The position numbers and the translations under genes are program-made. The notes under the pieces were generated by a model that saw nothing but the letters and a program-made list of their open reading frames with translations, made no database searches and was not told where the DNA came from. Below are positions 30,408-48,181 of a DNA stretch of 64,000 bases, piece by piece; within the stretch, counting starts at the first letter, position 1, and the number at the start of each line of letters is the position of its first letter. Source of the stretch: Octopus sinensis (Eukaryota); the NCBI RefSeq assembly GCF_006345805.1, contig NC_043022.1, positions 14,446,001-14,510,000 on the forward strand, in the 5' to 3' direction.

Positions 30408-33014
30408 GGCGTACACCATAGTCTACATACGTCTTCTCTGTTTTGGATTGTCTTTCTGTTCTCACCTCTGAGAGTTTATATGTATGTACTGTATAATTAT
30501 GTATCTTTTACTTGTTTCAGTCATTGGACTGCAGCCACGTTAAAGACACCGCCTTGAAGATCTTTTTAGTCGAAGTGACCCCCCACTCTTTTTTGGTGCT
30601 TATTCTAACGGTTCCCTTTTGCCGAACCGCTAGGTTACGAGGGAATCATACACACATACACACACACAAAAACCTGTTGTCAAGTTGTGTAGGAAGGGGC
30701 AAACACACACGATGGTACACATATCTATAATAATAATAATAATAATTGTGTACAGTGCTCAGGTGCACTACAACTCATCTAAAGTGTATATATAATCAGG
30801 TGTAGTTTCAGCGGATTTCGGAAAGCATGAGGGCCTTAGAGGATGCAGTGTCAAGGATATATATATACACATACATGCGGCGGGCTTTTTCCAGTTTCCG
30901 TCCACGAAATCCACTTACAAGGCCTTGATTGGCCCGAGGCGTGTAGTAGAAGACATTTGCCCAAAGTATTGGGAGTGAACACGAAATCGCGTGGTTCTTT
31001 GCCACAGCCAACATCTGTGCTTTATGTCGAGTTGTTCAGAAAACATATACATGACTATTGCTTATTCTTATATACTTTTTTCTTCTTTCTATTTTAGATC
31101 TTGCCGAAATAATAATAAATGCGACGTCTTGATACACAAATGCCCAAATTCTTTGAGACTGGCAGACGGATTGGATTGAGTACCATTTTAGTCTTGGGAG
31201 AATAAATCGAACGGAAATATATATATATTTGGGGAAACCAAAAAAAAAGGTACCACCACCAACACTACTTTACAGAAGAAAAATATAAAAGCATTATATG
31301 GAATAATAATAATAATAATAATAATTTACATACCACCACCACCACCACAATCGCCGCCGCCGCCACTAAGAATCATCGGAAGGAAACTATATAATTAATA
31401 TATTATATATACATACATGTATATATATATATATACACACACACATATATATATTATAAAGAACTCTACATGAAATAACAAAAATACACTCACACACACA
31501 CACATACATATATGATATCGATTAATATTGTTCTTTATTTTTGATTTTGAAAGCTTATTCTGCTTGGAATTTAACGCACAAAGAGGACATTTTCGTTGTC
31601 TGTCTGTCATTCATTTCCACACACACACACCACAAGTCATTCTCTTACACCATAGACATAAACACATTTCTTAACCGTCTTTTTATTATTTAAAGTAGAG
31701 AAAGAAAAAAAACAACCCCCCAACACATAAAGTACTTCCTACATTAAACAACAGATAAACAACGTATATACACACACACGTTTGTACAAATGTATATATG
31801 ATAATAATACTATATATAATATATATGTGTGAAAGATATCAGAAATATGTGAGAGGAGAAACGGTGGGCCATACATAGCATTGTAAAACCCATTCATTCA
31901 TTTTATCTATGAGTCAACAAGCCACTGCTTTTTCCCCTCTTAATTCCCGCCCCCACCTCATTATTTCGGATGTTACCCCCGTCTTTCAACCAGAAAAGAA
32001 AGAGATGTGTGTGGGTGATTTGATCTAGGAGCGGTTTTTCGAAGAAAGAAAGACAAAAAATATACAAAGAAACATCCCGCAAAGCATATTTTTCTTCCTT
32101 TTTCTTTCTTCCTCTTTCATTCAAACTTGCTTTTATTATTTTTTTTTTAAAACAGTCTTTTTTTCATTCTCTCTCTCCTCTACTTTTTTCATTCTCTCTT
32201 CTCTACTTTTTTCATTCATTCTTCTCTTGAGAGAACCACGAACACACACACGCACACAGAGGTAGATAAAGAAAATTCAAAGAAACAGATTTTATTTTCA
32301 ACGATTTTTCTTTCCACCTTTTATTTTCTAGTTCTATTTTTTTAAATTTCAAAAAACTATTATTAATTATATTATTTTCCACCGTCCTTCCTTTCTTTTA
32401 AAACTCCACAAACCTCCCCCTCTTTAAATTGTGGTGCTGAGTGGCTGTTTTGGTTCATTAAAATACTTAATTTAAGTCAAAATCTAAATCGCCGCTATGT
32501 TTCACCGAATGAAAAACCCTTCGATTTTTTTTCAATTCATTTTTTCCGAAGAGACCATCCCTTAGCCGATTCGGTAAACAACAACAACAACAACAACCAC
32601 AAACAACAAACGAACAAAACACACCCTCTTCATCTCCTCCCTCCCCCTCATTCTCTTCCATCCGTCTGTGCGTGTGAATACAGGTTTTAATATTGGTGGT
32701 GGTGGTGGTGCCCTTAGCGGCTCCCTGCGAGTGTCTAAATGTCTGTGTGTGTGTTGTATGTCTGTGTGTATGCGTGTGTGTGTGTCAAGCCAATATAGGA
32801 GAGAGAGTGAGAGAGACAGAGAAAGATAGGCATTTTTCCAAGACCATCTTCCATATTCTTCACTCGCTCCTCTCCCTCCTTCCTTCAGACAATCTCTTAC
32901 TAAGATCTATATCTATATACGTAACACATATAATACGTTCTGTTTATTTATCTACCTGTCTATTTACTCATATATTTATATATATGTATATATACATTTG
33001 ATACTGTGACTAAG

Positions 33015-33046
<32 letters not shown>

Positions 33047-33063
33047 GAACCCCCCTTCCGCAA

Positions 33064-33700
33064 ATGGCCACCTCGAATGACAGTCGCAACAGCGCCAGAC
33101 AAATGCAGACCTCGCCGACCATCAGTATCGGCGGTGTCCCCGGCACCACTTCTGCCTGTTGTTGGCTGGACTTCTGCGAGCAGAGCGGCGTGTCGGCCGC
33201 CGATCGCTTCTTCCAGGACTTCCTCGAGTATCTTATAAGCACGGGTGGATGCGGCGGCGGCCTCCTCGGCTCGTCGGCCACCCCTTCCTCTTCGACGTCT
33301 TCGGTGATGGGCGCGGGCCGGACGCCGTCGGCCGCCGGCGCCGCCGCCACCGCCGTGCAGTCGGCGGCGTGCACGTCGACCACGACCACCACGACGACCA
33401 CCACGACGACCGCCACGGCCACGGCCACCACCAACTCGGTGACGGTCAGCCACGTGCCGACGGCCACGCAGAGCAGCAGCTGTACGAACATCGTGAACCC
33501 GAGCAACACGAACATCATCAACGCCAGCTGTACGAACATCATCAATCCGAACTGCACCAACATCATCAACACCAGCAACACGAACATCATCAACACGACG
33601 TTCTTCTCGTCGACGTCGTCGCTCGCCTCGTCCTCTTCCGCCGCGGCCGCTGCGCCGACTCCCGCTCCGGGTCACCCTCAGGTCACGCAAGGGCTGCAAA
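33064..33700. other. GC/CpG-rich island over the 5' half of the SH2B exon
   Basis: Very dense CG dinucleotides (tcg, acg, gcg codons) against an AT-rich background. Confidence 0.75.
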
Positions 33701-34367
33701 ACCCGCAGCACCAGTTACAGCAGCAGCTGCAGCTCCAACAGCAACTGCAGCAGCAACTACAGCAGCACCACCAACAGCTACAGCAGCAGCAGTTGTCCGC
33801 CTCTTTGTTACTGTCCTCTTCGTCCCTGTCCACCTCATCGTCGCCCTTGCCATTGCCCTTGTCAAATTCCTCGTCATCCTCATCACAGCAACAGCCGCAA
33901 CAGCTGTCCTTACAGCAGAACTTGCAACAAAACCAACAGTATCAACAACTACCACTACCACAGCAACAACAACAACAACAACAGCCACAACCACCACCAC
34001 CACCGCCGCACCCACCACCACCACAACAACAACTACTACAACCACAACAGACACAACCACAACCAACACACCCACCACCACCACCACAACAACAACTACT
34101 ACAACCACAACAGACACAACCACAACCAACACCACCACCACCACCACCACCTCCTCCCCAACAACACCATCACCAACAGCAACAGCAGCAGCAGCAGCAT
34201 CATCATCATCAACAGTACTCGCCACAAAGCGGGTGGATTATCCTTGGAGATGTTATTGTACATTGTCCTAAAAACCCCATGGATTACGCATTAAGATTCG
34301 TGGAACATTTTTCTGAACATTTTGAGGAGCGGATTCGCAGTCTTTCATTCACTGATGATCCAAACAG
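33064..34367 (+). CDS. SH2B: First coding exon of an SH2B/Lnk-family adaptor protein (N-terminal Phe-zipper domain interrupted by a long low-complexity insert); remaining exons not found in the window
   Basis: Uninterrupted ORF from ATG 33064 (caaATGg). aa34-57 WLDFCEQSGVSAADRFFQDFLEYL and aa407-424 DYALRFVEHFSEHFEERI match the two helices of the SH2B Phe-zipper (SH2B1 as recalled: [24 protein letters not shown] ... AFSRRFAELFLQHFEAEV). Canonical donor AACAG|GTCAGT at 34367/34368 (phase 2), after which sequence becomes TA-rich and intron-like. Confidence 0.85.
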
Positions 34368-34496
34368 GTCAGTATATATTTTATATACACCAATTCTACA
34401 CACTTTCTATATATAATTGCATATTTAATATATACACACTTTTTTTTTTTCCGTTTGGTAATTTGGTAAGTTTTGGTTCCCTTTTTTTTTTTACTA

Positions 34497-35220: not shown

Positions 35221-35270
<50 letters not shown>

Positions 35271-35274
<4 letters not shown>

Positions 35275-36420
35275 TGTAGCCTACTGGCTTGCCAGTCCCC
35301 AGTCAAACCGTCCAACCCATGCCAGCATGGAAAACGGACGTTAAACGATGATGACATCATTTTTGTAAAGTTGTTGAATGTGGGACTTTTCTGTGAACAA
35401 TGAAGGCAGTACCTGTGACCCACACCTTTTATTTGGTAATTAAAAAAAACAACCTTTTGTTGGTAGTTGGCTGTGTGATCAGAAGCTTGCTTCCCAACCA
35501 CATGGTTCTGGGTTCAATACCACTGCGTGGCACCTTGGGCAAGTGACGTCTGCTATAGCCTCGAACAGACCAAAGCTCACCATCACTTGATGTTCCCGAA
35601 ACTTAGTTCGGCGAAAGATAGAGTAAGTACAGGGCTTACAAAGAATAAGTCCCGGGGTCCATTTCTTTTACTACAGGGGGTGCTCAAGCATGGCCGCAGT
35701 CAAATGACTAAAACGTGTAAAAGAGTAATATATACACCATTTGTGTTCTTTTTTTGTACGTATGTTGCACTTAGAACCACCTGAGTTGGATCTCTGGTTT
35801 AAATTGGATTTGGTACTTGCGTATGTCTACAATATCTTACCACCACTTGATACCTTCATGGTTGCTTTATCTCATTATGAACCCTATATTGTACCTAGCT
35901 GTTTCTGGGGTCCTAAATGTTCAAGTGCCTAGAGTCTATTGAATCACACACACAAGGATATCACACACACAAGGATATCACAGAAAGGCCTCGTTGGAGG
36001 ACCGCTGCAATAACGATGTGAATCTGAGAGGGGAATACGTTGATTAAAATCGTAACTGATTCTCTAGTTTCTTTCACTCAACGCCAGGACCTTTTCAGCA
36101 GCCCCTCGTGTGTATGTATGTATATTTATATGTATGTGTATATACACACACACAGACCGTTTTTGGTAAAGTTGTTAAATCTTTTTTTTAATAGAGGAGG
36201 CAATGTTTGTGACCCACGTTCATTTTTTTTATATATACTTTCTTTTTGTTGGTATTTATATATTTTATCGGCATTGCTGTATGGTTAAGTAACGCGCTTA
36301 AACAAGCACGTGGTTTGTGGATTCAGTCCCATTGCGCGGCACACCTTAGCCGTCTTCTAAGCCCCAGATCGCCCAATGCTTTGTGAATGAATCTGGTAGA
36401 TGGAAACTGCGATAGGCCAT

Positions 36421-36499
<79 letters not shown>

Positions 36500-37655
36500 T
36501 ATATATATGGTGTAGCCTACTGGCTTGCCAGTCCCCAGTCAAACCGTCCAACCCATGCCAGCATGGAAAACGGACGTTAAACGATGATGACATCATTTTT
36601 GTAAAGTTGTTGAATGTGGGACTTTTCTGTGAACAATGAAGGCAGTACCTGTGACCCACACCTTTTATTTGGTAATTAAAAAAAACAACCTTTTGTTGGT
36701 AGTTGGCTGTGTGATCAGAAGCTTGCTTCCCAACCACATGGTTCTGGGTTCAATACCACTGCGTGGCACCTTGGGCAAGTGACGTCTGCTATAGCCTCGA
36801 ACAGACCAAAGCTCACCATCACTTGATGTTCCCGAAACTTAGTTCGGCGAAAGATAGAGTAAGTACAGGGCTTACAAAGAATAAGTCCCGGGGTCCATTT
36901 CTTTTACTACAGGGGGTGCTCAAGCATGGCCGCAGTCAAATGACTAAAACGTGTAAAAGAGTAATATATACACCATTTGTGTTCTTTTTTTGTACGTATG
37001 TTGCACTTAGAACCACCTGAGTTGGATCTCTGGTTTAAATTGGATTTGGTACTTGCGTATGTCTACAATATCTTACCACCACTTGATACCTTCATGGTTG
37101 CTTTATCTCATTATGAACCCTATATTGTACCTAGCTGTTTCTGGGGTCCTAAATGTTCAAGTGCCTAGAGTCTATTGAATCACACACACAAGGATATCAC
37201 ACACACAAGGATATCACAGAAAGGCCTCGTTGGAGGACCGCTGCAATAACGATGTGAATCTGAGAGGGGAATACGTTGATTAAAATCGTAACTGATTCTC
37301 TAGTTTCTTTCACTCAACGCCAGGACCTTTTCAGCAGCCCCTCGTGTGTATGTATGTATATTTATATGTATGTGTATATACACACACACAGACCGTTTTT
37401 GGTAAAGTTGTTAAATCTTTTTTTTAATAGAGGAGGCAATGTTTGTGACCCACGTTCATTTTTTTTATATATACTTTCTTTTTGTTGGTATTTATATATT
37501 TTATCGGCATTGCTGTATGGTTAAGTAACGCGCTTAAACAAGCACGTGGTTTTGGATTCAGTCCCATTGCGCGGCACACCTTAGCCGTCTTCTAAGCCCC
37601 AGATCGCCCAATGCTTTGTGAATGAATCTGGTAGATGGAAACTGCGATAGGCCAT

Positions 37656-46192: not shown

Positions 46193-46769
46193 ACTACGGC
46201 TTCCATACAGTTTCTATCTGCCAAATTCATTCACAAGGCATTATTCTTTTTGTAAGCCCAGTACTTATTCTATCGGTCTCTTTTGCCGAACCGCTAAGTA
46301 ACGGGGACATAAACACACCAGCATCGGTTGTCAAGCAATGCTAGGGGGACAAACACACACGCGCATATATATATATATACACACATATACGACGGGCTTC
46401 TTTTCAGTTTCCGTCTACCAAATCCATTAACAAGGCATTGGTTGGTCCCAAGAGTTATAATAGACACTTTCTGTCACAAAGCGGGATTGAACTGGAAACC
46501 ACGTGGTTGCAGAGCGAATTTCTTACCCCCCCACCCCTCCCCCCACATGACCTCATCACAAGAACTGGTTTTAAGGATAGAAGTGTCCACCAGCTCCTTG
46601 ATCTCTCATCACTGGTTTTAGTAAATAAGGTTTTTGGCTGGGAAATAACACGGTTAATGAGAACGTTAGCAGATCTTTTACTTGGAAATGTGACCGGAGC
46701 CGATTTCCATCCACAATCTCCATATTTTAGCCAATTTCACAGAATATCTACCTGTGTAGCTAGTTTGTT

Positions 46770-47383
46770 TGTGTATGTGTGTATGTATGTATGTATGTAT
46801 TGTATATATATATATAGATATATATATATATGTATATATATATGTAGTATGTATATATGTATGTATGGTATGTATGTATGTAATGTATGTATGTATATGT
46901 ATGTATGTATATGTATTATGTATATGTATGATGTATATGTATGTATGTATATAGTATGTATGTATATGTATGTATGTATGTATAGTATGTATGTATGTAT
47001 ATATATGTATGTATGTATATGTATGTATGTATATATATGTATGTATGTATATATATGTAGTATGTATATATATGTATGTATGTATATATATGTATGTATG
47101 TATATATATGTATATGTATGTATATATGTATATGTATGTATATATATGTATATGTATGTATATGTATGTATATGTATGTATATGTATGTATATGTATGTA
47201 TATGTATGTATATGTATATGTATGTATATATATGTATATGTATGTATATATATGTAGTATATGTATGTATAATATATATATATGTATATATATGTATGTA
47301 TGTATATAATGTATGTATGTATATATATGTATGTATGTATATATATGTATGTATGTATATATATGTATGTATGTATATATATG

Positions 47384-47464
<81 letters not shown>

Positions 47465-47493
47465 GTATATATATGTATGTATGTATATATATG

Positions 47494-47546
<53 letters not shown>

Positions 47547-47557
47547 GTATATATATG

Positions 47558-47610
<53 letters not shown>

Positions 47611-47867
47611 GTATATATATGTATGTATATGTATGTATATATATGTATGTATATGTATGTATATATATATATGTATGTATATGTATGTATATATATATAT
47701 GTATGTATATGTATATGTATGTATATGTATGTATATATATATGTATGTATATGTATGTATGTATATATGTATGTATATATGTGTATGTATGTATATATGT
47801 ATGTATGTATACATATATATATATATATGTATGTATATATATGTAGTATGTATATATGTATGTATGT

Positions 47868-47901
<34 letters not shown>

Positions 47902-47940
47902 GTATAATATATATATAATAATATATATATATATATATAT
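46770..47940. repeat. ~1.2-kb (TATG)n/(TA)n compound satellite
   Basis: Direct reading; source of the 489/426/361-aa pseudo-ORFs. Confidence 0.97.
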
Positions 47941-48181
47941 AATAAAGGGTAAAATCATAAATGATTTTTACCAAGAGGTCAGCGCAGAAATAAAGCCTCA
48001 TAGCTAAATTAATATAAATAATTTATAATTATAAACATAATTATAACAAGCCAGGCCCTTGTTACAATTATGTATATAATTATGATATATATATATATAA
48101 TATATTTAGGGTTAATATGGTGTGGATATGGTTGTTGTGTGTGTGTAGATATGGTTGTATGTGTATGTGTGTATATGTGTG

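Follow-up and report, generated by a model that had tools for sequence, protein, structure and literature searches.

A phenylalanine zipper split by a long low-complexity insert in the SH2B/Lnk adaptor of octopus

The window analysed here (the whole stretch of 64,000 nt of Octopus sinensis DNA, G000:C26:14446001-14510000, whose numbering is used unless a contig is named) contains the first coding exon of an SH2B/Lnk orthologue on the + strand (33064..34367; 434 codons plus 2 bases, spliced to the next exon as in RefSeq XP_036369595.1). The stop-free ORF extends from the ATG at 33064 to a splice donor at 34367/34368 (GTCAGT, 34368..34373, +), where an intron of ~85 kb begins. Translation likely starts at M1 (33064..33066, +), as judged from the context of this ATG (GCAAATGG), which has an A at -3, a G at +4, and an in-frame stop just 5' of it. 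The leader (32000-33063) contains seven short upstream ATG frames of 5-23 codons, none of which overlaps the main ORF, and transcript-like contigs extend over ~1 kb of sequence 5' of the ATG. Within the exon, helix 1 of a phenylalanine zipper (W34-T60; 33163..33243, +) is separated by a long insert (aa 61-400; 33244..34263, +) from a mollusc-type proline cap and helix 2 (D407-I424; 34264..34335, +). A Pfam scan of 75 other ORFs in the window gave no match. Two stretches of intron 1 are conspicuous. At 35257-36792 and beyond lies an exact direct duplication, 100% identical over at least 300 nt and spaced by 1236 nt, with identical ORFs 1236 nt apart; it arose either by tandem duplication very recently or as an artefact of the assembly. 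At 46345-48022, both strands contain several long low-complexity open frames that overlap each other; the one scanned had no Pfam match, and the region is probably a satellite.

The remainder of the gene was located by an SH2 profile search of the genome, which identified a + strand exon 148 kb downstream of the zipper exon. In 170 kb of DNA, we mapped a further seven coding exons, bounded by GT-AG, 85-153 kb downstream, of which exon 2 (C26:14565432-14566044) is followed by PH exons, two linker exons, two SH2 exons (C26:14627607-14627810 and 14631874 onward, +; Pfam SH2, 51.1 bits), and an SH2B-type tail; an alternative last exon was also mapped at the locus. These downstream exons are identical to XP_036369595.1 and XP_036369597.1 (SH2B adapter protein 1, Octopus sinensis, RefSeq). 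The Pfam PH match (aa 205-295 of P0124, E = 1.4e-4, 22.7 bits) is slightly below the cut-off of 25.1, and the PH exons can be aligned with mollusc PH domains. The closest homologues of the SH2-carrying part were SH2B in every case, and the SH2 exon region is 75-81% identical to that of mollusc SH2B orthologues. Since this SH2 exon has a single genome match (1 of 13 candidates scored), the gene is the only SH2B copy found in the octopus genome, and there is thus no intact paralogue to substitute for the split zipper.

Variability is also found in the C-terminal part of the gene. In the last exon (L013:2120-2740; C26:14632120-14632740), the SH2 domain is followed by ~140 additional residues rich in Gly, Val, and Ser, and a poly-Gln run precedes the tail; Gly-rich tails of different sequence occur in the cuttlefish fragment P0129 and the Logan protein P0229. 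RefSeq isoform X3 ends in the alternative last exon (L014:1448-1513) in place of the conserved tail, and a pre-SH2 linker exon (L012:4012-4212) is skipped in RefSeq isoform X2 and the Logan protein P0127. This alternative splicing is reminiscent of the C-terminal isoforms of vertebrate SH2B1. At its start (L012:7607-7810), the SH2 domain reads GMLLRRDA or GLLLRRDA in octopus and cuttlefish, compared to TLSR.EA in the other orthologues read, a coleoid-specific change in a stretch that we take to lie near the phosphotyrosine pocket.

A preliminary description of this DNA had proposed that an SH2B/Lnk phenylalanine zipper is split here by ~340 codons of poly-Ser/Thr/Ala, TNIIN, and Q-, P-, and H-rich sequence, and both its coordinates and this account of the insert, which agrees with our composition and repeat analysis, proved right. 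The Pfam profile PF08916 (Phe_ZIP) matches aa 34-57 (profile positions 2-25) and aa 407-422 (positions 39-54) in the correct order. The two stretches are 350 residues apart, instead of forming a contiguous helix-loop-helix of ~57 residues that scores above the cut-off. At 23.5 bits (E = 8.4e-5) for the whole exon-1 protein, the match falls just below the curated cut-off of 25, confirming the expectation that domain scanners would half-call the domain. We therefore built our own zipper profile from 100 of 119 full-length homologues, kept for the helix-1 tryptophan and an in-register helix-2 aromatic residue. This profile also recognises two pieces in the octopus protein, aa 34-59 (19.7 bits) and 401-424 (19.3 bits). 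When aa 65-400 were deleted in a script, the halves joined, as foreseen, into one domain of 54.9 bits with this homologue profile (not Pfam's). Shuffling one half reduced the score to at most 32.8 and 32.6 bits, respectively (500 shuffles each), and shuffling both reduced it to at most 6.5 bits (500 shuffles). Of 13 held-out homologues printed (19 were left out), nine scored 54.5-66.7 bits and four divergent ones 4-34 bits, while the in-sample median was 75.3 bits. The joined octopus zipper is like held-out snail orthologues in its score.

The aromatic core positions are all retained or swapped from F to Y. In helix 1, W34, F37, C38, A45, A46, F49, F53, and Y56 fit conserved columns, as do Y408, F412, F416, and F420 in helix 2, which is preceded by a proline cap (PKNP; PRDP in bivalves and snails). 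Departures from the consensus are a glycine at position 42 (alanine in 99 of 100 rows) and a serine in place of a hydrophobic residue at 417. Several other approaches were uninformative. MAFFT put helix 2 in the wrong place in alignments A1 and A2, and an ESM Atlas search gave no usable match. The zipper of APS, whose structure (PDB 1Q2H) was reportedly determined by Dhe-Paganon et al. in 2004, was not recovered from the PDB by sequence, whether P0001 or either half served as the query. A genome-wide Phe_ZIP search returned no match, and its control was silent too. A complex prediction with both helices supplied in duplicate, run without alignments or controls, reached a score of 0.02 (mark 0.34). 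The metagenome match L018 was rejected as a chance hit, being a bacterial-looking ORF with no zipper-profile score.

With the SH2B family (vertebrate SH2B1/SH2-B, SH2B2/APS, SH2B3/LNK, and the single invertebrate SH2B/Lnk), the octopus protein shares the order of its parts: Phe-zipper, basic motif, PH, SH2, and RAVEN-type tail. It differs from this family in its dimensions. The distance from the helix-1 tryptophan to the last helix-2 phenylalanine is 386 residues, whereas it is 44-63 (median 50) in 100 orthologues, and the predicted full protein has 1165 aa, compared to 571-652 aa in 25 hand-picked mollusc-type orthologues. The short loop assumed for other family members is supported, insects included, although Drosophila Lnk itself was not identified among the rows compared. 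In a survey of 264 proteins (a redundant set with many fragments), 163 had a whole zipper, none with more than 13 extra residues, 5 had the second half only (all octopus), 1 matched in the first half only, and 95 had no match. The nearest parallels are a chiton (Liolophura) and a scallop SH2B, with 13 and 6 Ser-rich extra residues in the same loop; these extensions are more than 20 times shorter than the octopus insert and leave one Pfam match above the cut-off. Both octopus helices keep the aromatic spacing of PF08916 and the mollusc proline cap, but the domain spans ~390 residues and lies under the Pfam cut-off, in contrast to the ~60 contiguous residues described in an excerpt of PMC8781068. 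According to the same excerpt, this ~60-residue dimerisation domain mediates homo- and heterodimers, although LNK dimers in vivo are uncertain (PMC8781068). Extracts of two further papers state that TrkA activation requires SH2B1/2 dimers (PMC3196555) and that the dimerisation domain is common to all human SH2B1 isoforms (PMC4138566).

The insert adds ~335-340 aa in frame and is predicted to be mostly disordered. Its residues are dominated by Q (n = 76), P (n = 48), S (n = 46), T (n = 39), L (n = 28), A (n = 23), N (n = 18), and H (n = 15), with no K or E, one R, and one D, so that only 2 of 340 positions are charged. Aromatic residues and arginine, which usually drive condensation of such segments, are also few (F2 W1 Y2 R1). 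The sequence contains poly-T/S/A, TNIIN-type repeats (a 24-nt tandem repeat of 4.6 copies, 33484..33594, +), a Q/L-rich tract (33700..33810, +), and Q/P/H-rich sequence. A 63-nt tandem repeat of ~3.2 copies lies at 33951..34150 (+), where 58 nt beginning at 34012 recur exactly at 34075. A single-sequence AlphaFold model (mean pLDDT 43, pTM 0.23) was used for local secondary structure only. At this low confidence it contains helices at aa 31-41/46-60, 405-425, and 213-249 and a hairpin at 390-401, with the rest mostly lacking regular structure. The long predicted helix at aa 213-249 corresponds to the Q/L-rich tract (pLDDT 62-82 in these blocks) and, given the spacing of its leucines, is a possible candidate for a coiled-coil self-association site. 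The putative beta-hairpin coincides with a hydrophobic stretch just before helix 2 (34231..34266, +), which is absent from the loops of the other orthologues in our alignments. Repeats in the 5' part of the insert are degenerate and those in the 3' part are young and exact, suggesting stepwise growth of the insert. Repeat expansions also occur elsewhere in the protein, where the post-SH2 segment comprises 193 aa compared to 45-88 (n = 18) and the tail 54 aa compared to 26-33 (n = 16). Together with the glycine-rich tail of the cuttlefish fragment, these sequences point to repeat expansion as a general coleoid tendency, of which the zipper loop would be the extreme and the only case inside a folded domain.

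An open frame alone is weak evidence that such a segment is coding, because another + frame across the insert is also stop-free. The reality of the insert rests instead on the helices, the transcript-like contigs, and the codon-position pattern. The GC content by codon position (0.33/0.70/0.94 for aa 61-185) is as expected of long-standing coding sequence in the insert frame, and charged residues make up 0.6% in this frame compared to 16-19% in the other two. The insert was traced as far as the genus-level organisms A and B. In organism B, the exon carries three substitutions, all at synonymous third positions, which is a very small sample, and its sole indel is 9 nt long, although in-frame indels arise from triplet repeats even without selection; the upstream contig of organism B contains 8 substitutions and 37 gap letters in ~960 nt, several of the gaps being 1 nt long. 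Run X20 (organism C) is identical to the window over 33125-33934 and therefore provides no outgroup.

The transcript-like contigs come from runs that we guessed to be RNA, none being on record as such, and the letters of 33935-34220 were masked in the comparison. Contigs from five studies (X1, X5, X6, X11, and X15) end exactly at 34367, whereas the DNA-sized run X19 reads past the donor into the intron. All five cover helix 1 and the 690 nt of insert that follow it without interruption, and they show 0-2 differences. Contig X1-1 (2732 nt) matches 33045-33934 and 34221-34367 without differences and thereby contains helix 1, insert, and helix 2; its masked part measures 229 nt compared to 286 nt in the genome, an in-frame difference of 57 nt. 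It is the only contig among the five runs to bridge both helices, the other four breaking in the masked region with the exact 58-nt duplicate at 63-nt spacing. After the donor, X1-1 continues for 1454 nt, which we infer to be exon 2. As helix 2, PH, and SH2 are joined in the RefSeq model and helix 1 is joined to helix 2 in X1-1, the Phe-zipper, PH, and SH2 domains would all lie on one transcript. The long form with the insert is presumably translated. Two further elements of the preliminary description are borne out by these data: retention of the insert in the transcript, documented by this one contig of guessed RNA status, and the presence of PH and SH2 in downstream exons, established by exon mapping and RefSeq identity.

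Public protein records convey a different picture of the N-terminus. All five retrieved octopus proteins with helix 2 begin at M406 (34279..34281, +) and lack helix 1; they include RefSeq models of O. sinensis and O. bimaculoides and a Logan protein. Plausibly, these starts result from contig breakage at the exact 63-nt-spaced repeat. The start context of M1 is better than that of M406, and contigs cover the sequence 5' of M406 back beyond M1. The exact exon-1 protein was absent from a 15-billion collection. Protein searches found no N-terminus from squid, cuttlefish, or Nautilus, and no match, octopus included, came from word-based searches of proteins of 763-2175 aa with helix 2 and of 99-315 aa with helix 1. 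A representative search retrieved the cuttlefish protein CAE1260794.1 (Acanthosepion pharaonis) and a Logan protein, both covering the C-terminal part only.

On balance, we favour a tolerated loop expansion, in which the helices still pair and dimerise and the insert loops out as a mostly disordered passenger. We consider this reading the likeliest because other repeat expansions occur in disordered parts of the same gene. In the SH2B zipper, two hairpins make up a four-helix bundle whose loops lie at its ends, and such a loop could lengthen without breaking the core. Triplet slippage and small tandem duplications would have enlarged the insert step by step, in a loop that in other animals appears to accommodate as many as 13 additional residues. 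Selection would have retained the reading frame and both helices. A polymer estimate gives an effective helix-helix concentration of 0.13-1.1 mM for assumed end-to-end distances of 8-16 nm. Usual adaptor concentrations are lower, so that same-chain pairing and an ordinary dimer should be the default in dilute cytosol, with swapping between chains competing in dense clusters only. The usual two-hairpin dimer would then result, and PH and SH2 would remain connected through it to phosphorylated receptors or JAK. The G42 and S417 changes count against an intact zipper, and the near-total lack of charge could mean selection for function rather than passive tolerance. The preliminary description had envisaged domain-swapped oligomers or condensates. 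Along these lines, the uncharged Q/N/S/T/P-rich segment and the predicted Q/L helix might self-associate while the helices swap chains, forming networks or condensates at activated receptors. We regard such a functional insert as unlikely, although its prion-like composition, the predicted Q/L helix, and the frame preserved between organisms A and B would fit; moreover, above ~0.1-1 mM in a dense cluster chain exchange would compete with same-chain pairing, and a four-helix bundle of unlinked helices could draw on up to four chains. The scarcity of aromatic and arginine residues, the 57-nt difference in repeat length within organism A, and the similar expansions elsewhere in octopus SH2B argue against it.

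We give less credence still to a weakened or broken zipper, with helix 1 slowly decaying and SH2B relying on PH and SH2 largely as a monomer, or else acting mainly as a short form that begins at M406 and has helix 2 only. The M406 starts of all five retrieved proteins, the two off-consensus residues, and the doubt about LNK dimers voiced in the excerpt cited above (PMC8781068) are compatible with this, but helix 1 alone scores 19.7 bits with its core residues retained, M1 has the better context and is covered by contigs, and the M406 starts can be explained by breakage at the repeat. Far less probable, and largely refuted, is that the insert is a cryptic intron or an assembly artefact and that the protein has a normal zipper. 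Although the ORF by itself is weak evidence and the contig letters do not cover the masked 33935-34220, the contigs of five studies extend without a break over 690 nt of the insert, one of them reaches helix 2, and the focused contig comparison listed no joint that would remove the insert. Splice signals around the insert are weak as well, as neither a strong donor after helix 1 nor a pyrimidine-rich acceptor before helix 2 was found.

The split zipper is a real and apparently undescribed variant of a known adaptor whose N-terminus had been missed; the literature searched (titles and abstract starts, with most subscription journals outside its scope) contained no description of it in octopus. 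Its recognition corrects the public octopus SH2B gene models, from which ~405 N-terminal residues are missing, and suggests that halves of other domains may be concealed by repeat-rich inserts in the annotation of cephalopod genomes. It is doubtful, and less probable than any of the above except splicing or artefact, that octopus SH2B is multivalent, its helices pairing across several chains and its tether self-associating into a polymer or condensate at activated receptors. If true, a fixed two-chain module would have been made multivalent in the one adaptor that octopus has for insulin-, neurotrophin-, and JAK-type receptors, and this adaptor would form polymers or condensates. In any case, octopus SH2B is a natural split-domain experiment, in which a 60-residue fold that is contiguous in 163 of 163 intact cases is interrupted by a segment six times as long as the fold itself. 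It poses a testable question for the family, namely whether dimerisation, still uncertain for LNK, is needed in vivo and whether the SH2B zipper needs its short loop.
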